Shown here: positions 4,929 to 32,769 of the stretch, one piece after another | Position numbering within the stretch: position 1 is the first letter of the stretch | Layout: each line of letters starts with the position of its first letter | Assembly: GCA_946499835.1 (NCBI GenBank) | Contig: CAMMTJ010000003.1 | Span: 55,460-119,459, forward strand | Direction of reading: 5' to 3' | DNA length: 64,000 nucleotides | Source: an uncultured Bacillota bacterium | GTDB taxonomy: Bacteria > Bacillota > Clostridia > Christensenellales > UBA1242 | Notes under the pieces: model-generated | Database searches by the model: none | What the model was told of the DNA's origin: nothing | Seen by the model: only the letters and a program-made list of their open reading frames with translations | Translations under genes and position numbers: made by a program

Positions 4929-4999
4929 TTGTATAATTTATTTTTTAGGTCTAGACAACTGTCGAAATTTGTGTTATATTGAAAATAAGGAGAACTATT

Positions 5000-5377
5000 A
5001 TGCATCAAAACAAATTTGATTCAGACCAAATCTTTGTCGCAACTATTGTTCGTTGCAAAGAATTTGAAAATGGAATTTCACTTAAAAATGACAAGGTTGG
5101 CACAAAATTAGTTGTGGTCAGACGAGTGAAAGGTATGAGAACGCTGTATGCAACTTGTCTTAAAGATAAGGCATATTATGATACTTGCAGGGGAACAGAT
5201 GACCATTTTGTCAGTAGCGTTGAAAAGTTGGAAGATCGCATGGTTGATATTATGGGGAAAGAATACTGGGAAAAAAAGTATGGAAAAAAGGACCATTTCA
5301 ATCGTGAAACAGTGAGAGAAATTGAAAAATTGGTTGGTTATAACAATAATATAAAAACTTCTGGGTTTTTCTTGTAA
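5000..5377 (+). CDS. hypothetical soluble protein, 125 aa, no family recognised
   Basis: ATG at 5000 is preceded by AAGGAG. Terminator-like hairpins lie on both sides. No motif that I can name. Confidence 0.6.
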   Translation: MHQNKFDSDQIFVATIVRCKEFENGISLKNDKVGTKLVVVRRVKGMRTLYATCLKDKAYYDTCRGTDDHFVSSVEKLEDRMVDIMGKEYWEKKYGKKDHFNRETVREIEKLVGYNNNIKTSGFFL

Positions 5378-5619: not shown

Positions 5620-6528
5620 ATGTCAGTTATTTCAATGAAACAACTTCTCGAGGCTGGCGTTCACTTCGGTCACCAAACAAGAAAGTGGAACCCTAAGATG
5701 AAGAAATACATTTTTACTGCTAGAAATGATATTCATATCATCAACCTTGAAGACACTTCTGCACAAATCGATAAAGCATACACTTTTGTTCGTGATATCG
5801 TTGCAGCAGGAAAAAATGTGCTTTTTGTGGGCACAAAAAAACAAGCACAAGAAGCAGTGAAGGAGGAGGCTGAACGTTGTGGAATGTTCTATGTCAACAC
5901 TCGTTGGCTCGGCGGTTGCCTTACAAACTTCAAAACAATCAAATCAAGAATTGAGAGACTCAACAAACTCAATCAAATGGAAAAGGTTGGTGAATTTGAC
6001 CTTCTTCCAAAGAAAGAAGTGACTCTTCTCAAAGCAGAGAGAGACAAACTTGAAAAGAACCTTGGCGGTATCAAAGAAATGAGAGAACTCCCTGGACTTG
6101 TTTTCGTTGTTGACCCTAACTGCGAACATATTTGCGTTCATGAATGCAAAGTTCTTGGAATCCCAATGGTTGGACTTGTTGACACAAACGGCAACCCAGA
6201 CGGAATTGATTATGTTATTCCAGGAAATGACGATGCCATCCGTTCAGTAAAACTCATTGCAAGCGCTATTGCTGATGCTGTTATCGAAGCAAAAGAGGGC
6301 GTGTCAATGAAGAAAGAAGAAAGTGCTGAGGAAGAAGATATCGATATCGAAAAAGCACTTGCTGAAACAAAACCTAGTCTTGAAATTGCAGAGGCTGGCG
6401 AAGAGAAAAAATCTAAAAAGCCAAGAAAGAAACCTGCTCCTAAGAAAAAGGTTGAAGAGAAAAAAGAAGTAGTGGCAGAAGAAAAAGCCCAAGTAAAGAC
6501 AGAAACTGAAAATAAATCTGAAAAATAA
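5620..6528 (+). CDS. rpsB: 30S ribosomal protein S2 with a ~70-aa K/E-rich C-terminal extension
   Basis: [27 protein letters not shown] is the canonical S2 N-terminus. SD AAAGGAGG lies just upstream. The upstream part of the track ORF (from 5581) is leader. Confidence 0.95.
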
Positions 6529-6551: not shown

Positions 6552-7208
6552 ATGAACTTTACTGCAAAAGACGTTGCTGAACTTAGAGCAAGAACAAATG
6601 CTGGAATGATGGACTGCAAAAAAGCATTGGTTGAATCTGATGGCGACTTTGAAAAGGCTGCTATCTGGCTTCGCGAAAAGGGTATCGCTGCCGCTGCAAA
6701 GAAACAATCAAGAATCGCTTCTGAGGGTATCGTAACATCATACATCCACATGGGTGGAAAAATTGGCGTTCTTGTTGAAATCAACTGCGAAACAGACTTC
6801 GTTGCAAAGACAGATGCTTTCCAACAACTTGGAAGAGATATTGCTATGCAAATCGCTGCTGCTGCTCCAAAATATGTTCGCATTGAAGAAGTGCCTGCTG
6901 AGGCTGTTGAGGCTGAAAAAGAAGTTCTCAGAGCACAAGCACTCAATGAAGGAAAACCTGCTCAAATCGTTGAAAAAATGGTTGAAGGAAGAGTTAAAAA
7001 ATTCTATCAAGACGTATGTCTTTTGGAACAACCATTTGTCAAAGATTCAAGCATGACCATTCAAGCATATATCAATGAGATGACACTTAAAATTGGTGAA
7101 AAAATCTCTGTTCGTCGTTTCACTCGTTATGAAATGGGCGAAGGTCTTGAAAAGAGACATGACAACTTGGCAGAAGAAGTTGAAAAACAAATGCAAAAGA
7201 AAAACTAA
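6552..7208 (+). CDS. tsf: elongation factor Ts (short form, 218 aa)
   Basis: N-terminal UBA-like motif ([19 protein letters not shown]) and [10 protein letters not shown]. The gene follows rpsB. Confidence 0.95.
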
Positions 7209-7221
7209 TTTTGGTTTTACG

Positions 7222-7253
7222 AAAAAACAAGCAAATTTGTGCTTGTTTTTTTT
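7222..7253 (+). terminator. rho-independent terminator after tsf
   Basis: Stem ACAAGCA (7227-7233) pairs with TGCTTGT (7240-7246) and is followed by a T run. Confidence 0.8.
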
Positions 7254-7262
7254 ATTTGCCTA

Positions 7263-7291
7263 TTGACTAAATAAAATATTTAATATAAAAT
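7263..7291 (+). promoter_or_regulatory. candidate promoter of the 946-aa orphan
   Basis: TTGACT (7263-7268), a 17-bp spacer, then TAAAAT (7286-7291). SD GGAGG lies at 7308-7312. Confidence 0.45.
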
Positions 7292-7316
7292 ATATATGTT
7301 TTTATTTGGAGGAAAT

Positions 7317-10157
7317 ATGGCAGGAAGACTAACATTGAAATTAGACAATTTAGAAAAACTCGGCATTTCACTTGCAGAGAAAGAGGAAATCAAAAAATTT
7401 ATCAAAGACAACCCTCAGATCAAAGAAAGAGTAGATAAAATTCAAAAAGTTTTGAAAGACAAATTTTATCTTTCTGAAACAGAAGTGGAAAATTATATTT
7501 TGAAAATTTGTGAAGATGAAAGTGAAAAAGATATTTTCTTTTTCCAAGACATTTTTGAAGAATTTGAAAAGAATGACGTTGGAAGTTTTGATGCTGACGA
7601 GCGAAAAAAGCAAGCAAGGAATATCATTTTTGACGTTTATGACCTCTACAAATCCCAAACCAGAAAGGTTGGAGAAGATTTCATTGATTGTATGCGTGAA
7701 GCAAAAAGACTGGGCATTGATCCATTCCGTTTTGCCATAAAAACAAACATTGAAAAGGCAAATGGCGATAAGTTTCAACAAACTCTTGATTCTTTGACAG
7801 CAGAATATGATGCAATGTATTTCAAGAAAAACTCAGCAAAAAATGAGACAGAGATTTTGTTTTCTCATGACGAAACAAAAGCAATTCTTGAACAATGCAT
7901 GACACTTGCCATGCGACTTAATTGCGACCTTGTGGAATATGTTTTACTTACTCTTAGTGATCTTGCTTATGACAAAAAGAAAGGTGTTTTTTATGCAGAC
8001 GTGAGAGAATTTATAAGAAAAGCACCTTCAATTTTGCTTGCAAATCCTTTGAGCATCGAATCGACAATTTCAAAATTGAAAAATTATTATGAAAAAATAG
8101 GAAAAACACAAGAAGACCTTGTGCAGAGAGTTCTTCAAAGTCCTTCTGTGCTTTGTGCAGATAGCAAAGATATTGACAGCACGATAGATCTTTTAGCCAA
8201 AAACTATCAATCACTTATAAGTCAATTGCCTGAAAAAATTAGACGTGGCAAAGATGCAAGGGTTATGGCTGAGGCTTTTGCTTATGATGTGACAAATCTA
8301 TCACAAATCAAATCACTCAAAACTGAAAGTTTTGGAAAAATGCAAGAAATCCTTATCAAATACCTTGGCGCTGAAAATGCACTTACTTGCTTCCAAAATA
8401 TGGAAATATTAAATAAGGCGCCAGAAATTGTTGAATATGCACTAGCAGTCATTTCAACAGCGCCTAACAGCAAAGACCTTCGCGAAAAATTCGTCAAAAG
8501 CCCAAACACTTTCATGGAAGAGAAAAAAGATTTTTCTCAAAACAATTCTGACATTGAAGGCGGAGTGGGCACAGAACGCAAGACATTCTTTGCAAACAAA
8601 GAGACTTTGCCAGATGTAAACCTTTCAAAAGAAGAAATAGAAAATCTTAAAAACAAACTTTCAAAGAAAGACCTCAAAACATTGCAAGAAAAAATTGATG
8701 CCGAAAAAGAGCGTTTGGCAGAATTGCAACGTAAATATGAAGAGGAAAAAAGAAAACGCAGAGAAGAGAAAAAAGCGCGTGAAAAAGCAGAAAAAGAAAA
8801 AAGAAGAGCAGATAGAAAAGCAAACAAAGATAAAAAACCTTCTCAAATTATTGTTAATGCTCAAAATCTAAGTGAGCAAGAAAACAAACCTCAACTTAGT
8901 TATGAGGAAAAAATGAGAAAAAGGCTCTCTTATTTATGGCCTCCGAAAAAAGGTAAATTAAAATCAGGAGAGGTGGCACACAAAGATTTTGAAAATATTT
9001 ATGAACCTATTTTCAACGTACTTGATAGATGTGGTATTGAATTAGATTTGCCAAAATATAAGGATGTAAAAGAGATCTTTAAGAAATATGATAGTTTGGC
9101 AGTCGATTCAATGGTGGCATCGCAACTTTCAATTCTCTATGGACAATTTTTCAAATCTTTATTATCAGAAGGCGTGGAAACCCCTATAATCAGTTTGTTG
9201 AGTTCAACTGAGGATAACGAAATTAGAAAAATGTTTACAATGGCTTCCAATATTAAAGATAGCACAGGAAACTCTGATAAATATCTGATGAAAGTGAAAG
9301 AAACTGATACTTTGGCTGATTTGTTTATCAAATATGCAGATGGTGCTTATCGAGCGACAAAAGATGTTCAAGACAGGTTGTTTGACCTTGTTGATAAAAC
9401 GAATGAAATAAGTCAGGAACCAAAAAATAGCGAAAATATAACAGTGAATTTTAGACTTGTTGAAAGGTTCTTGAAAAATTATATCGAAGAATGTGACAAG
9501 CAGTTGATAGACCTCATTGGGCAGGAAAGATATGATCAATATTTTGATGAAGATACAAAGAAGATTAAAGATATAATTGAAAAGAAAGTGCTTTCAGATA
9601 AAAATATAAAACCTATCAACTCACCAGTTATTGTTTGTAAGGGATATGTTGCTCCTGCATTAGACTTTATCAAACTAATGGCACGGGAACTTAAAAGGGG
9701 AGACTATATTAAACAATTTGACAGAGTTGAAGATGAATATGCCGTCAGATTGCAAAGTAAATATCTTGATGCCATCGCAGAAATGACGGATGAAATCAAA
9801 AATAAAATAACATCTTTGCCTGGCGAAGGCAATATGCTGGTGCTTAAAGCAGAAGATGAGAAAGGAAAACCATATCGAGTTATTGCAATAAATGATGGAG
9901 AAGTGATAAAACAAAAAGAAAATGGAGAGGATAAAAAGATAACTGCATTCACGATCGCTGCTGTATCTAATGACCCAAATTATTTTGGAGATCCGCTTTT
10001 CTATCAAATTTCGAAAAGACCATCCCTTGTTACCATGGATAAAAATGGTAGTTTTGGTATAAGGGACGTGCTTGGCTTGGTTGATGTTGAAAATACAGAA
10101 TTGAAAATTGATGGATTTGATGTTCAAGGCAAGAAAGGTGATATGGGCATAAAATAA
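7317..10157 (+). CDS. large orphan protein, 946 aa: N-terminal helical repeats (tentatively mTERF-like), a central K/E/R coiled-coil, and an unassigned C-terminal half
   Basis: A long uninterrupted ORF with ATG at 7317 behind GGAGG. It has its own promoter and terminator. It occupies the tsf-frr gap where pyrH normally lies. No family recognised. Confidence 0.8.
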   Translation: MAGRLTLKLDNLEKLGISLAEKEEIKKFIKDNPQIKERVDKIQKVLKDKFYLSETEVENYILKICEDESEKDIFFFQDIFEEFEKNDVGSFDADERKKQARNIIFDVYDLYKSQTRKVGEDFIDCMREAKRLGIDPFRFAIKTNIEKANGDKFQQTLDSLTAEYDAMYFKKNSAKNETEILFSHDETKAILEQCMTLAMRLNCDLVEYVLLTLSDLAYDKKKGVFYADVREFIRKAPSILLANPLSIESTISKLKNYYEKIGKTQEDLVQRVLQSPSVLCADSKDIDSTIDLLAKNYQSLISQLPEKIRRGKDARVMAEAFAYDVTNLSQIKSLKTESFGKMQEILIKYLGAENALTCFQNMEILNKAPEIVEYALAVISTAPNSKDLREKFVKSPNTFMEEKKDFSQNNSDIEGGVGTERKTFFANKETLPDVNLSKEEIENLKNKLSKKDLKTLQEKIDAEKERLAELQRKYEEEKRKRREEKKAREKAEKEKRRADRKANKDKKPSQIIVNAQNLSEQENKPQLSYEEKMRKRLSYLWPPKKGKLKSGEVAHKDFENIYEPIFNVLDRCGIELDLPKYKDVKEIFKKYDSLAVDSMVASQLSILYGQFFKSLLSEGVETPIISLLSSTEDNEIRKMFTMASNIKDSTGNSDKYLMKVKETDTLADLFIKYADGAYRATKDVQDRLFDLVDKTNEISQEPKNSENITVNFRLVERFLKNYIEECDKQLIDLIGQERYDQYFDEDTKKIKDIIEKKVLSDKNIKPINSPVIVCKGYVAPALDFIKLMARELKRGDYIKQFDRVEDEYAVRLQSKYLDAIAEMTDEIKNKITSLPGEGNMLVLKAEDEKGKPYRVIAINDGEVIKQKENGEDKKITAFTIAAVSNDPNYFGDPLFYQISKRPSLVTMDKNGSFGIRDVLGLVDVENTELKIDGFDVQGKKGDMGIK

Positions 10158-10172
10158 TTAAATCATATAATC

Positions 10173-10202
10173 AAAAGAAGGGGTTTCCCTTCTTTTTTTT
10201 GT
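10173..10202 (+). terminator. rho-independent terminator after the 946-aa gene
   Basis: 10-bp stem AAAAGAAGGG (10173-10182) pairs with CCCTTCTTTT (10187-10196), with a GTTT loop and a trailing T run. Confidence 0.8.
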
Positions 10203-10384
10203 TTACAAGAAAGAATTTTTGTCATAAAAGATATTGTGGCATGGGTTTCTTTGCAGTTAGAGTCAATTTAACATGAAAAATTTCTCTTTTCTAACATTTT
10301 TCTTACCTCAAAAAGCAGAAGAAGAGCAAAATCATTTGCCAAAGAGAGGTCAAGTATTGTAAAATATCTTGCAAGGAGAGTTTT

Positions 10385-10951
10385 ATGAACGAAATGACAG
10401 AAGAAATCTTTGCCTCATGCAAAGAAGAAATTGCAAAAGCACTTAATCACCAAAAAAATGAATATCAACTTTTGCGTGCAGGAAGAGCAAATCCGCATAT
10501 CTTAGACAAGGTCTTTATTGACTATTATGGAGTGCCAACTCCAATCAAAAATATGGCAAGCATAACTGTGCCAGAAGCACGCATACTTGCTGTTCAAGTT
10601 TGGGATCAATCACAAGTAAAAAACGTGTCAAAGGCCATTGCTATGGCTGATCTTGGAATCACTCCAAGTGATGACGGCAGAGTGATAAGACTTGTTTTTC
10701 CTATTCTTACAGAAGAGAGAAGAAAGGAAATTGTCAAAACTGTGAAAAAGATTGCAGAAGAGACAAAGATCGCCACACGCGCAGCAAGAAGAGATGCTCT
10801 TGAAATGCTTAAAAGCATGCAAAAAGATGGCGAACTTTCTGAAGATGAACTTGCAACTTGTGAAAAAGAAGTTCAAAAACTTATTGACAATGCAGGCGAA
10901 ACAATCGACGAAGTTTGCAAGACAAAAGAAAAAGAGATTATGGAAGTCTAA
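10385..10951 (+). CDS. frr: ribosome recycling factor
   Basis: 188 aa with typical RRF motifs (LLRAGRANPHILDKV, VIRLVFPILTEERRKE). Confidence 0.95.
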   Translation: MNEMTEEIFASCKEEIAKALNHQKNEYQLLRAGRANPHILDKVFIDYYGVPTPIKNMASITVPEARILAVQVWDQSQVKNVSKAIAMADLGITPSDDGRVIRLVFPILTEERRKEIVKTVKKIAEETKIATRAARRDALEMLKSMQKDGELSEDELATCEKEVQKLIDNAGETIDEVCKTKEKEIMEV

Positions 10952-13841: not shown

Positions 13842-15380
13842 ATGGACGAACTAATGAGGGCGCTAAACAAAAAGTTTGGCGACAAATATTCATATTTGAA
13901 ACTCTTTGAAGTGGTGTATGACAAGAGAAGTCAAGTCTGCACCTTTACTTTTTTGTATCCTCATACAATTTCAGATATGGAGAGTGAGGACAGAAAAGAG
14001 ATTGAAAACTTTGTCAAAGAATATTTTTCTTTGAACGGAGATGTGAGGGTAAAATTTAAGAAGAGTTTTCTTGATGAAAAACTTATCAGACATGAAGTCA
14101 AAAACTTTTTTGAAGAAAAACATAAGTCTCTTTTGCCATATTTCAAAGAAGAGAATTTGTCGTCCACATTTGAAGGACTGGATGTAAAAATAACCTTAGA
14201 GCTTAACAAAGACCTTTTTGCCATGATTGATAAAGAGGATATGATAAAAGAGATGGTCATCTTTTTAAGTAAGCGTTTCATTGCAAACTTTGATATTTCT
14301 TTTGTGAAAAATGAAGAGGTTTTGCCAGATGAAGTGGTTATTGAAGAGGATATGTTGCCAAGCGTCAAAAGGACAATGCGCTATGAGGTCAACATTGAAG
14401 CCGACCTCATTGGCTCTGGTATTGCGCCAAAACCTGAATACATAAAGGATATCCAAAAACCAAAGTCGGCAGTAATTTTGGCTGGCGTTATTTCAGGTTT
14501 TACTCAAAAAACCTTTGTGCGTAAAAAAGGTAAAAAAGCAGGAGAAGAGGGTATATATTATACTTTCACTCTTAACGACGGAGACAAAATTGAGTGCATC
14601 TATTTTTGTGGAAAAACCAATCTCAAAAAAATGGAAAGTTTGACAGATGGGCATATGATTGTCTGCGTGGGCGATGTCAACACTGGCATTAGTGGAAAAT
14701 TGACTTATTACATCAAAAAAATTGCACTTGCAAGTCCAAAGATCGTTGTCAGTGCAATTGAAGAGCAGACATTTGAGAAACCTAAGAAAAGGAAATGGGT
14801 GGCAAGTGTTGAGCCTATTGTTACTCAAAGTCAAAGCAATTTGTTTGAGAATAAAGTTGTTTACAATGACAATATTATGACACACACCTTTGTGGTGTTT
14901 GACATTGAAACCACAGGTCTTGACCCTGAAACTTGTGAGATAACTGAAATTGGCGCTGTCAAGATCGAAAACGGAGTGATAAAAGAAAGGTTTTCATCTT
15001 TTGTGAAACCAACTGTGCCTATTCCAATGGAAGTGCAACTTCTTACTCACATAACTGATGAAATGGTCAAGGATGCGCCATCAATTGAAAACGTTATCGC
15101 AGACTTTTATGATTGGACACGTGGCTGTGTGCTGAGCGGATATAACGTTATTGGCTTTGACATGAAATTCATCAAAAAAGCAGGACAAAAATATAACTAT
15201 CGCTTTGACAACGATGTTGTTGACACCATGATTGTTGTGAGGACTTCTGGGCTGAGGTGTTCAAACTATAAACTTGGCACAGTTGTGTCAGCATTGGGGC
15301 TGACGCTAGAAGGGGCACATAGGGCTTACAACGATGCTCATGCAACGGCTCAGGTGCTTTTAGCATTGTCAAAAATATAA
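13842..15380 (+). CDS. PolC-like N-terminal/OB-fold region fused to a DEDDh 3'-5' exonuclease, with no PHP or polymerase core
   Basis: Exo I FVVFDIETTGLD, Exo II GYNVIGFDMKFI and Exo III HRAYNDAHATAQ are present. The upstream segment (AVILAGVISGF...YYTFTLNDGDKIECIYFCGK) is laid out like the PolC OB domain. The gene lies in the rseP-rimP slot usually held by polC. Confidence 0.8.
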   Translation: MDELMRALNKKFGDKYSYLKLFEVVYDKRSQVCTFTFLYPHTISDMESEDRKEIENFVKEYFSLNGDVRVKFKKSFLDEKLIRHEVKNFFEEKHKSLLPYFKEENLSSTFEGLDVKITLELNKDLFAMIDKEDMIKEMVIFLSKRFIANFDISFVKNEEVLPDEVVIEEDMLPSVKRTMRYEVNIEADLIGSGIAPKPEYIKDIQKPKSAVILAGVISGFTQKTFVRKKGKKAGEEGIYYTFTLNDGDKIECIYFCGKTNLKKMESLTDGHMIVCVGDVNTGISGKLTYYIKKIALASPKIVVSAIEEQTFEKPKKRKWVASVEPIVTQSQSNLFENKVVYNDNIMTHTFVVFDIETTGLDPETCEITEIGAVKIENGVIKERFSSFVKPTVPIPMEVQLLTHITDEMVKDAPSIENVIADFYDWTRGCVLSGYNVIGFDMKFIKKAGQKYNYRFDNDVVDTMIVVRTSGLRCSNYKLGTVVSALGLTLEGAHRAYNDAHATAQVLLALSKI

Positions 15381-31071: not shown

Positions 31072-32769
31072 ATGAGAATAAGTCATATGGTAGGAGAAAG
31101 AACAAAGGAGACACCAGCAGGGGCTTCTGTCAAAAGCCAAATATTTTTGATGCGTGCAGGCTACATCAAACAAGTCAGCAACGGCATTTACACTCTTTTG
31201 CCTCCTGCACAAAGGGTAAGCAAAAAAATTCAAGCAATTATCAGAGAAGAAATGGACAAAATTGATGGACAAGAAGTGCTTTTCCCTGTCGTTATGCCAA
31301 AAGAACTCTGGGAAAAGAGTGGCAGATATTATTCTATCGGCGAAGAAATGGTTAGATTTAAGGATAGATCAAACAGAGATATGCTTCTTGGAATGACACA
31401 TGAAGAGGCTGCCGTTCATGCTTGCCAGAATATAATCAAAAGTTATGACCAGTTGCCTCTTATGATTTATCAAATTCAAACCAAGTTTAGAGATGAGGCA
31501 AGACCAAGAGCAGGACTTATAAGAGTGAAAGAGTTTACCATGAAAGACGCTTACTCTTTCCACACATCAAATGAAGATTTGGAAGAATACTATTCTCGTG
31601 CCTTTGATGCTTACAACCGCATATTCCAAAGAGTGGGAATGAAAAACTTTATATCTGTTAAGTCTGACAACGGTATGATGGGCGGAAATTGTGCTCACGA
31701 ATTTATGCTTCTTACAGACATTGGTGAAGATAGTATCGTCATTTGCCCACATTGCGATTATAAATCAAACATGGAAGTGGCTGTTTCAAACTATGCAAAA
31801 CCAAAGTTTGAAGATAGTCCAATCAAGGAAGTGTTTACAGGCGAGGCAAAGAGTATTGAGGAAGTTTGCGCTTATCTCCATTTGCCAGCAGAGCAAACGA
31901 TGAAAGCAGTATGCTATGCTGTCGTTGGCGATGACAAGGAAACTGTTGTTGCTTTTGTTAGAGGTGATAAAGAGGTCAATGAGGCAAAACTGAAAAAGGT
32001 TGTTGGCAAAGAAATTGCAGTCAAGGATCTTGAAGGCTCAGGACTTGTTAAAGGAAATATCGGCATAGTTGGACTTGGACAAGAACATATGACTATCATT
32101 GTTGACAAGTCGCTTGAAGGTATGCAAGGATTATGCTGTGGAGCAAATAAAGAAGAATATCACCTTGTTGGAGTAAATCTTGCAAGAGATGCCAAGATTG
32201 ACAAATTCTATGACATTGCAAAAGTCAAAGAAGGGGAACTTTGCCCAATTTGCGGTCAACCTCTCAAAGTTGAAAGGGGAATTGAGATTGGAAATATCTT
32301 CCAACTTGGAACAAAATACACAAAGTCAATGGGCATGACTGTGACTATGCCAGACGGAAGTCAAATCAACCCAATTATGGGCTGTTATGGAATTGGTGTT
32401 GGCAGATGTCTTGCTTCGGTGGCGGAGGAACTGTCAGATGATAAAGGTCTTGTATGGCCAATGTCAATCGCACCATGGCAAGTATATCTTTGCCCACTTC
32501 GAAACGATGATGAGAAGGTTTCTGCGGTGGCAGAAGAACTTTATAAATCACTTTCAGAAAAATTTGAAGTGCTTTATGATGATCGTCATGTTTCAGCAGG
32601 AGTGAAACTCACTGACAGCGAACTTATGGGTATTCCAGTAAGAGTTGTTGTAAGTCCAAGATCTCTTGCTCAAAATCAGGCTGAAATCACTTTGCGTGCA
32701 AGCGGTGAAAAGATCATGGTTGACCTTAAAGATCTTGAAAGTGAACTTTCACGCCTTACAAAGATATAG
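31072..32769 (+). CDS. proS: prolyl-tRNA synthetase (bacterial type with INS editing domain)
   Basis: Class II motifs (FRDEARPRAGLIRVKEFTMKDAYSF, GCYGIGVGR). Starts 2 nt after xseA and ends 8 nt before xseB. Confidence 0.95.
   Translation: MRISHMVGERTKETPAGASVKSQIFLMRAGYIKQVSNGIYTLLPPAQRVSKKIQAIIREEMDKIDGQEVLFPVVMPKELWEKSGRYYSIGEEMVRFKDRSNRDMLLGMTHEEAAVHACQNIIKSYDQLPLMIYQIQTKFRDEARPRAGLIRVKEFTMKDAYSFHTSNEDLEEYYSRAFDAYNRIFQRVGMKNFISVKSDNGMMGGNCAHEFMLLTDIGEDSIVICPHCDYKSNMEVAVSNYAKPKFEDSPIKEVFTGEAKSIEEVCAYLHLPAEQTMKAVCYAVVGDDKETVVAFVRGDKEVNEAKLKKVVGKEIAVKDLEGSGLVKGNIGIVGLGQEHMTIIVDKSLEGMQGLCCGANKEEYHLVGVNLARDAKIDKFYDIAKVKEGELCPICGQPLKVERGIEIGNIFQLGTKYTKSMGMTVTMPDGSQINPIMGCYGIGVGRCLASVAEELSDDKGLVWPMSIAPWQVYLCPLRNDDEKVSAVAEELYKSLSEKFEVLYDDRHVSAGVKLTDSELMGIPVRVVVSPRSLAQNQAEITLRASGEKIMVDLKDLESELSRLTKI

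Follow-up and report, generated by a model that had tools for sequence, protein, structure and literature searches.

In the current study, we analysed a 64,000-nucleotide (nt) stretch of DNA from an uncultured Bacillota bacterium (GenBank assembly GCA_946499835.1, contig CAMMTJ010000003.1, positions 55,460 to 119,459 of the forward strand; hereafter the window), and in particular a 946-amino-acid (aa) gene that lies in it between tsf and frr. This interval gene is a hypervariable, recombining and dispensable locus between near-invariant housekeeping flanks, which is its most unusual property, and it sits inside one of the most conserved gene strings of bacteria, an unexpected place for such a gene. 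Its product comprises a conserved N-terminal α-solenoid resembling the mTERF fold, a long charged helix and a hypervariable C-terminal half. The best reading of these findings, to which we would assign a probability of roughly one half, is that the protein is accessory and diversifying, has an mTERF fold, probably binds nucleic acid and carries a variable module for the recognition of partners. The gene had been singled out by an earlier sequence-only reading of the window, the claims of which are taken up below where the results bear on them.

The coding sequence and its main parts are as follows; residue numbers are those of a 953-aa frame, from which 7 is subtracted to obtain the numbering of the 946-aa protein.

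7317..10157, forward strand: coding sequence of the interval gene, 946 aa plus stop codon (list of open reading frames (ORFs), Shine-Dalgarno sequence, starts of homologs and lengths of database copies)
7353..8525, forward strand: N-terminal conserved α-solenoid, mTERF-like, aa ~20-410 (AlphaFold2, Foldseek and family hidden Markov model (HMM))
8664..8825, forward strand: long single helix rich in Glu, Arg and Lys (ER/K), aa 457-510 (AlphaFold2, one helix at a mean predicted local distance difference test (pLDDT) score of ~88; composition)
8901..10154, forward strand: hypervariable, mostly α-helical C-terminal half, aa 536-953 (alignment and AlphaFold2)

Allelic divergence and dispensability of the interval gene

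The hypervariability of the gene is most evident from the comparison of loci L001 and L004, the flanks of which are 97.7% identical over ~20 kb and the interval alleles of which are 47% identical. Nucleotide identity between the two loci drops at the promoter of the interval gene, is 67-78% across the initial 750 nt and 90% in the central part, declines to 39-57% in the 3′ half, and stands at 99% immediately past the stop codon, while the C-terminal halves encoded by alleles in near-identical genomes share 24-26% identity. The number of synonymous substitutions per synonymous site (dS) is 1.8 in the region encoding the C-terminal half, against 0.02-0.10 in the flanks (nusA excepted), and the alleles therefore long predate the genomes in which they occur. 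Each of the two alleles is present in two independent assemblies. A fall to 25-50% identity within one gene, on chromosomes that match at ~98% to either side of it, constitutes a strong signature of diversifying or balancing selection.

A further allele, P0002, is a mosaic, being 97-100% identical to the window protein over columns 1-240 of alignment A1 and 95-98% identical to P0011 (otherwise 47% identical) over columns 241-480, which indicates intragenic recombination. The overall pattern is the signature of allele exchange by homologous recombination via the conserved flanks, under diversifying or balancing selection. Elsewhere in the same region, nusA (L001 18753-19931 and L004 18718-19896) exhibits a dS of 0.25, outside the range of the other flank genes, which suggests a second recombination patch.

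Compared with the ortholog of 83% identity, the ratio of non-synonymous to synonymous substitution rates (dN/dS) was 0.17 for the N-terminal domain, 0.40 for the middle and 0.28 for the C-terminal half, as against 0.025 for tsf and 0.032 for frr; the gene is thus under purifying selection, but of a kind 7-10 times more relaxed than that acting on tsf and frr. In all compared pairs of loci but one, the divergence of the interval protein greatly exceeds that of Tsf, Frr and UppS; the exception is window-L004, where it is on a par with UppS. Finally, two relatives (L011 and L012) with the same extended synteny and with Frr 75-76% identical carry tsf followed directly by frr, without the interval gene and without pyrH, and inspection of their empty slots revealed no remains of the gene. 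The gene is dispensable, because these relatives keep the synteny without it.

Architecture of the protein and its resemblance to mTERF

Hardly any bacterial examples of the mTERF fold are known, and mTERF proteins are generally taken to be eukaryotic factors specific to organelles. Several of the eukaryotic mTERFs are ribosome biogenesis factors. The sequence-only reading had remarked on a likeness of the N-terminal helical modules to the mTERF repeat pattern, and this resemblance is now backed at the level of the fold. Structure prediction was performed with AlphaFold2 using a 41-member alignment (a 6-sequence alignment gave a pLDDT of 41.6 only), and residues 20-410 were modelled as an all-α repeat array with a pLDDT of ~90. 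When the model was compared with the PDB by means of Foldseek, ranks 1 to 8 were all occupied by MTERF1, MTERF3 or MTERF4 at a probability of 0.97-1.00, with the probability falling to 0.18 at rank 9. The features on which the sequence-based comparison rests are the following.

7977..8522, forward strand: stretch resembling Pfam mTERF (PF02536), sub-threshold, aa 228-409 (Pfam scan of pieces)
8004..8078, forward strand: first canonical mTERF motif, REFIRKAPSILLANPLSIESTISKL, aa 237-261 (strict regular expression, Pro at 8 and hydrophobic residues at 11, 18 and 25)
8121..8195, forward strand: second canonical mTERF motif, VQRVLQSPSVLCADSKDIDSTIDLL, aa 276-300 (same expression)

Among Pfam families, mTERF was the top match of a 415-aa piece of the protein (E 0.0011, 18.4 bits) and the sole match of a 207-aa piece (residues 209-415), and it was the only family to recur across the alignment (4 of the 41 members at E≤10, best E 0.0023); the family consensus did not recover mTERF from Pfam, though single sequences matched. 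In a sequence search of the PDB, MTERF3 (3m66) was the top match for both the family profile (E 0.07) and the family consensus (E 0.008), and alignment of the family profile to MTERF1 by hhalign (sequence checked against 3n6s) yielded an E-value of 0.0015 and a score of 30.9, the maximum in 30 shuffles being 19.4. The canonical mTERF motif of ~30 aa carries a proline at position 8 and hydrophobic residues at positions 11, 18 and 25 (Roberti 2009, as quoted in PMC11417379). Beside the two strict occurrences listed above, two looser matches are found at aa 244 and 396. The best conserved residues of the family, P283 (98% of the 41 members) and L286 (90%), both lie within the second motif, and eight positions are conserved as Lys or Arg. 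As three independent lines, namely structure, sequence and motif, agree, the N-terminal domain is considered mTERF-like at the fold level and probably a remote homolog, although it is not filed as a Pfam member because every sequence score lies below curated thresholds.

The charged segment that follows the solenoid had been described as a coiled coil, a description which the composition does not bear out. Across aa 465-504, 75% of residues are Glu, Lys or Arg and only 10% are hydrophobic, and for this reason an ER/K single α-helix is more likely than a heptad coiled coil. The helix region (aa 457-510) is basic, with an isoelectric point (pI) of 9.8. A content of 60% Glu, Lys and Arg over 40 aa is reached in only 8 of the 41 members.

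The C-terminal half was modelled with a pLDDT of 30-86 and includes a short, low-confidence β segment (aa 847-891). Across the 41 members it contains one near-invariant column, a glycine, and no catalytic-looking motif. It was also considered as a degenerate duplicate of the N-terminal array, and this idea was rejected (hhalign probability 0.3%).

Extent of the family

Full-length searches of Pfam, NCBIfam and PDB sequences returned no match, in keeping with the initial impression that the protein belongs to no recognised family; no curated family matched at threshold. Matches to TolA and PseG in NCBIfam (E 0.05-0.09) were dismissed as composition noise from the K/E-rich helix. The designation as an orphan has to be withdrawn, since a family of 46 clusters at 50% identity, with members in at least four genomic contexts other than the tsf-frr interval, emerged when the N-terminal profile was run exhaustively against 1.84 billion representatives by means of HMMER. 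The edge of this family is sharp: 45 of the 46 clusters fell below 1e-10, one at 2.6e-6, and none between there and the cut-off of 0.001. A word-indexed (k-mer) homolog search retrieved only 12 clusters, ranging from 99% down to 29% identity, as against the 46 found by HMM. Members are mostly 850-1000 aa long with the domain at the N-terminus, the family HMM covering aa 1-427 of the interval protein, and they are devoid of transmembrane or signal segments, bar one marginal hydrophobic window.

All 46 clusters are unannotated, no source naming any member protein. The L006 member derives from a metagenome-assembled genome (MAG) labelled 'uncultured Clostridia bacterium', and the other members from metagenome assemblies or NCBI records. 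A scan of GTDB species representatives (185,579 genomes) uncovered only one relative, and no relatives were found in a viral-contig scan or in two metagenome scans. In the same GTDB scan, two search patterns matching the window protein exactly did not return the window's own species, which seems to be absent or incomplete there.

Occupancy of the tsf-frr interval

A survey of the tsf-frr interval in relatives, which the sequence-only reading had proposed, found the gene in one clade and, as described above, absent from L011 and L012. The gene lies between tsf and frr in the orthologs of 83% and 47% identity and also in L008, L009 and L013, the members of which are only 22-26% identical overall. 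In a neighbour-joining tree of the N-terminal domains, all slot members, including that of L010, form a single clade, and it is in this clade that the ER/K helix occurs. Because members as dissimilar as these are still found in the slot and form one clade, residence in the slot is old and confined to that clade, and the earlier view that the gene was not recently acquired is upheld.

In L010 the gene adjoins frr, with a surface-protein gene instead of tsf on its upstream side (151-2808, an 885-aa Flg_new/GLUG-repeat surface-type protein), and the linkage to frr thus survives a rearrangement on the upstream side. This 885-aa ORF was also considered as a paralog of the interval gene and was rejected, as it is an unrelated Flg_new/GLUG surface protein. 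Members outside the slot clade occupy the other contexts mentioned above and have no shared neighbour. Two of these non-slot members (L007 196-4268 and L014 3025-6817) do share an arrangement in which a Band_7/zinc-ribbon protein and then four small unannotated ORFs precede the family gene, and this neighbourhood could provide the family with a second stable location.

The persistence of the rpsB-tsf-[interval gene]-frr...rimP-nusA-infB setting, even around members of 22-26% identity, raises the possibility that the protein is a housekeeping gene-expression factor, a counterpart of MTERF3, MTERF4 or plant mTERF9 that functions in rRNA and ribosome biogenesis or in transcription termination and is kept beside tsf and frr for that purpose. 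The mTERF-like fold would accord with such a role, and activity of eukaryotic mTERFs in ribosome biogenesis is described in PMC3536695. The gene has, however, its own putative promoter and is bounded by terminators on both sides, it is missing from relatives of the same synteny, other members reside in unrelated contexts, and its dN/dS is ~7-10 times that of tsf and frr; moreover, a core factor would not tolerate alleles of 47% identity in near-identical genomes. A housekeeping role in ribosome biogenesis is distinctly unlikely because the gene is dispensable, autonomous and hypervariable.

Gene borders, expression signals and the absence of pyrH

The flanking genes and signals of the interval gene are listed below.

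6552..7208, forward strand: tsf (EF-Ts), upstream flank (ORF list; PF00889 in the syntenic genes of relatives)
7221..7258, forward strand: intrinsic terminator of tsf, 13-bp hairpin (7221-7252) and U-run (fold compared with shuffles)
7263..7291, forward strand: putative promoter of the interval gene, sigma-70-like, TTGACT-17 nt-TAAAAT (consensus match, 10/12)
7308..7313, forward strand: Shine-Dalgarno sequence GGAGGA, 3 nt ahead of ATG 7317 (read in the sequence)
10173..10202, forward strand: intrinsic terminator of the interval gene, 10-bp stem and T-run (fold compared with shuffles)
10336..10365, forward strand: promoter-like site of frr, TTGCCA-18 nt-TAAAAT (consensus match; aligned with the empty-slot locus L011)
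10385..10951, forward strand: frr (ribosome recycling factor), downstream flank (ORF list; PF01765 in relatives)

The ORF is uninterrupted from 7296 to 10157 on the forward strand and amounts to 953 aa when counted from the first ATG (7296). The true start is almost certainly ATG 7317, giving 946 aa, rather than the in-frame ATG at 7296, because GGAGGA is located at 7308-7313, homologs begin with MANR or MPAR at the equivalent methionine and most database copies are 946 aa long. The hairpin of the tsf terminator has a folding energy of -13.6 kcal/mol (z -4.7; none of 200 shuffles was as stable) and the terminator of the interval gene one of -14.3 kcal/mol (z -3.3 against shuffles). Promoter-like sites show no enrichment in this region, 18 being found where 15.7 are expected. 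The promoter-like site of frr is kept both with the interval gene (window) and without it (L011). The spacer between the terminator of the interval gene and frr (10203-10384) is 182 nt long, of which only the last ~50 nt, comprising the frr promoter and leader, align to empty-slot relatives. A search against Rfam detected no RNA element near the interval gene, including the rest of this spacer.

These signals agree with the description of the gene as a self-contained unit, with its own putative promoter, Shine-Dalgarno sequence and terminator and with the tsf terminator ahead of it. The remark that its codon style is that of its neighbours likewise holds, the correlation of relative synonymous codon usage (RSCU) being r 0.895, within the range of 0.85-0.95 obtained for control genes, with a G+C content at third codon positions (GC3) of 0.27. 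The best explanation is that of a genuine, independently transcribed, cytoplasmic accessory gene, on account of the sharp family edge, the intact lengths, the dN/dS values of the N-terminal domain and C-terminal half, the Shine-Dalgarno sequence, the promoter and the terminators; the 946-aa ORF is thereby confirmed as real.

The rpsB-tsf-pyrH-frr region is among the most conserved bacterial gene strings, and pyrH is the usual occupant of the tsf-frr interval. The gene order of the window (~37% G+C) is thrS'-yajC-DUF3792-secD-secF-orf-rpsB-tsf-[interval gene]-frr-uppS-cdsA-rseP-(512-aa exonuclease-domain ORF)-rimP-nusA-...-infB, with sporulation genes further downstream, which makes the organism a low-GC, spore-forming Firmicute. 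The reported absence of pyrH from the window was borne out by a tblastn search with E. coli PyrH, which gave no match below E 0.4 either in the window or in loci L001-L006; around the slot, pyrH is located neither in the 7 kb upstream nor in the 54 kb downstream that the window covers, nor in the flanks of related loci, and no AA_kinase gene is present in any gene list of these loci. The accompanying suggestion that the gene occupies the pyrH slot as a replacement is not supported: L011 and L012 lack both genes, the absence of pyrH from the slot is therefore independent of the interval gene, and the latter did not displace pyrH. A tempting synteny argument is thereby corrected.

The same observations bear on the proposal that the gene is either non-functional (a spurious ORF or an insertion in decay) or a non-orthologous substitute for UMP kinase. 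A family without annotation at the usual place of pyrH invites such a proposal. A non-functional gene is difficult to reconcile, however, with 46 clusters of intact 850-1000-aa ORFs, with a dN/dS below 0.3 and with an N-terminal domain modelled at high confidence. As to a kinase, the protein contains no kinase motif and has no AA_kinase match in Pfam or NCBIfam, and it cannot substitute for pyrH, seeing that relatives without the interval gene are also without pyrH in the slot. Taken together, the proposal is effectively refuted and has a negligible probability.

A number of further observations were made on the window and its relatives. RpsB (5620-6528) and YajC (1182-1673) possess long K/E-rich C-terminal tails, RpsB being ~300 aa long as against the usual ~250, and the N-terminus of InfB is long and of low complexity; the lineage seems to have a tendency towards charged helical extensions, which the ER/K helix of the interval protein resembles. 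The 512-aa ORF (13842-15380; RNase_T and RNase_H_2 exonuclease domains) between rseP and rimP is kept in all relatives examined, at a place held by proS-polC in Bacillus. In the window, dxr is missing between cdsA and rseP, and proS is found elsewhere (31072-32769). A conserved, unannotated ORF of 115-132 aa without a Pfam match lies between secF and rpsB in the window and its relatives (window 4979-5377, L001 7676-8053, L008 5751-6098).

Proposed function

The reading that we prefer, that of an accessory, diversifying mTERF-fold protein, would assign a separate task to each part of the molecule. The conserved solenoid would bind an extended ligand, for which DNA or structured RNA is the likeliest candidate in analogy to mTERF and pTERF proteins; the ER/K helix would act as a rigid spacer of roughly 8 nm; and the variable C-terminal module would recognise a fast-changing or strain-specific partner. 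Overall, this would make it a regulator that diversifies specificity, or a factor of the conflict type, and not a core translation component.

Several points weigh against this reading. The intraspecific allele contrast derives from one pair of loci (L001 and L004), and the neighbour-joining tree carries no bootstrap support. The Foldseek TM-scores to MTERF1, MTERF3 and MTERF4, normalised by target length, are moderate (0.35-0.52), and the Foldseek output gives no query coordinates; we infer that the match lies in the N-terminal domain because the sequence matches and the confidence profile fall there. No sequence link to mTERF reaches a curated threshold: pieces of the N-terminal domain matched PF02536 at E 0.0011-0.0016 and 17.8-18.4 bits, below the gathering cut-off of 23.1 bits, and hhalign gave MTERF1 a probability of only 17%. 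The solenoid has a pI of 5.3, the family median being 5.5 and only 7 of the 41 members being basic, as opposed to 9.33 for the MTERF1 construct; this acidity is the main evidence against nucleic-acid binding and weakens a model of simple DNA binding. Finally, five diverse members returned no match in PADLOC-DB 2.0 and a single marginal match in PHROGs (E 0.0075), and the neighbourhood consists of housekeeping genes, with no defence genes or defence island.

The acidic solenoid, the sub-threshold mTERF scores and the moderate TM-scores would be expected if the protein were purely a protein-protein scaffold, in which the solenoid is generic or convergent and the likeness to mTERF is a structural analogy, and a long helix joined to a helical C-terminal region is typical scaffold architecture. 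What speaks for mTERF kinship instead is that mTERF is the sole recurring sequence family in Pfam and the PDB and fills the top eight structural ranks, that no HEAT, ARM or TPR protein is present among the better-ranked hits, that the canonical motif is present with its Pro and Leu as the best conserved residues of the family, and that eight Lys/Arg positions are conserved. A pure scaffold is thus possible, though we consider it doubtful.

The population pattern is compatible with a defence-type role, and in its most specific form the protein would be a single-gene factor against phages or mobile elements, in which the C-terminal half senses a component of the invader and the mTERF-like solenoid acts on nucleic acid. 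Presence/absence polymorphism, extreme allelic divergence limited to this gene, mosaic alleles and the pairing of a conserved 'effector-like' half with a hypervariable 'sensor-like' half all favour such a factor. This form of the proposal is nevertheless unlikely: in addition to the PADLOC, PHROGs and neighbourhood results given above, the protein has neither an enzymatic domain nor conserved catalytic residues, the viral contigs scanned contained no relatives, and no link between mTERF and defence was found in the literature.

Under the preferred reading of an accessory, diversifying mTERF-fold protein, the gene is a concrete candidate, from uncultured gut Clostridia, for a function in specificity or conflict that would be new. 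It may be further proposed, albeit as a tentative and rather unlikely extension, that the family represents a second, independent bacterial mTERF-fold class that, in contrast to pTERF, has kept the canonical eukaryotic motif and acts as a strain-specific diversifying recognition system composed of a conserved solenoid that binds nucleic acid, a rigid ER/K spacer and a hypervariable sensor. If this were true, the gene could be, for example, an immunity or exclusion factor of a new single-gene type that resides in a housekeeping gap and is swapped through homologous recombination, and the family would offer a bacterial point of reference for how organellar mTERFs arose.

Comparison with known systems

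With PyrH (UMP kinase), the interval protein has position alone in common, being without similarity to AA_kinase.

ER/K single α-helix spacers are known, for example, from myosin VI and myosin X. The interval protein resembles them in that ~55 residues with almost no hydrophobic side chains form one predicted continuous helix joining two domains; it differs in that the high Glu, Lys and Arg content is confined to a minority of family members.

The proteins described as the first prokaryotic mTERF-like proteins are the pTERFs from rumen Clostridia MAGs (PMC11417379, Nucleic Acids Res 2024; pTERF1, MBQ3414883.1). They consist of 3-11 tandem, mutually similar units of ~35 aa, were discovered by a tandem-repeat pipeline and exhibit sequence-specific DNA binding with nanomolar affinity (PMC11417379); follow-up literature on them was not found. 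The present family resembles pTERF in its mTERF-like helical units, in being small and unannotated and in its origin from uncultured Bacillota/Clostridia gut MAGs. In contrast, the tandem similar repeats that define pTERF are not detectable in it, as none of the 41 members produced an off-diagonal match in self-comparison by BLASTP at E<0.01; the canonical Pro8/Leu motif, which pTERF1 lacks (PMC11417379), is present; and the text of PMC11417379 mentions no long variable C-terminal region for pTERF.

Hypervariable allelic loci within conserved flanks are exemplified by the hsdS specificity subunits and by the agr and com pherotype loci. The interval gene shares with these the collapse of identity at the gene borders between chromosomes of ~98% identity, the mosaic alleles and the variation in presence and absence; it differs from them in standing alone, no partner gene in the locus varying along with it, and in having no methylase, receptor or peptide-signal domain.

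With mTERF proper (PF02536; MTERF1, 3MVA and 3N6S; MTERF3, 3M66; MTERF4, 4FP9) the interval protein has in common an α-solenoid of ~30-35-aa units, each made up of a helix, a short Pro-helix and a helix, and the Pro8/hydrophobic 11-18-25 motif in at least two of these units. Whereas mTERF proteins are nuclear-encoded and organelle-targeted, it is encoded on a bacterial chromosome, its domain is acidic where that of MTERF1 is basic, and it is fused to an ER/K helix and a hypervariable region of ~420 aa that mTERFs do not possess. The novelty of this bacterial mTERF-like protein lies in its architecture and in an unusual, hypervariable population structure, and the distinct architecture, together with the canonical motif, widens the bacterial record of the mTERF fold and bears on the origin of the eukaryotic mTERFs.

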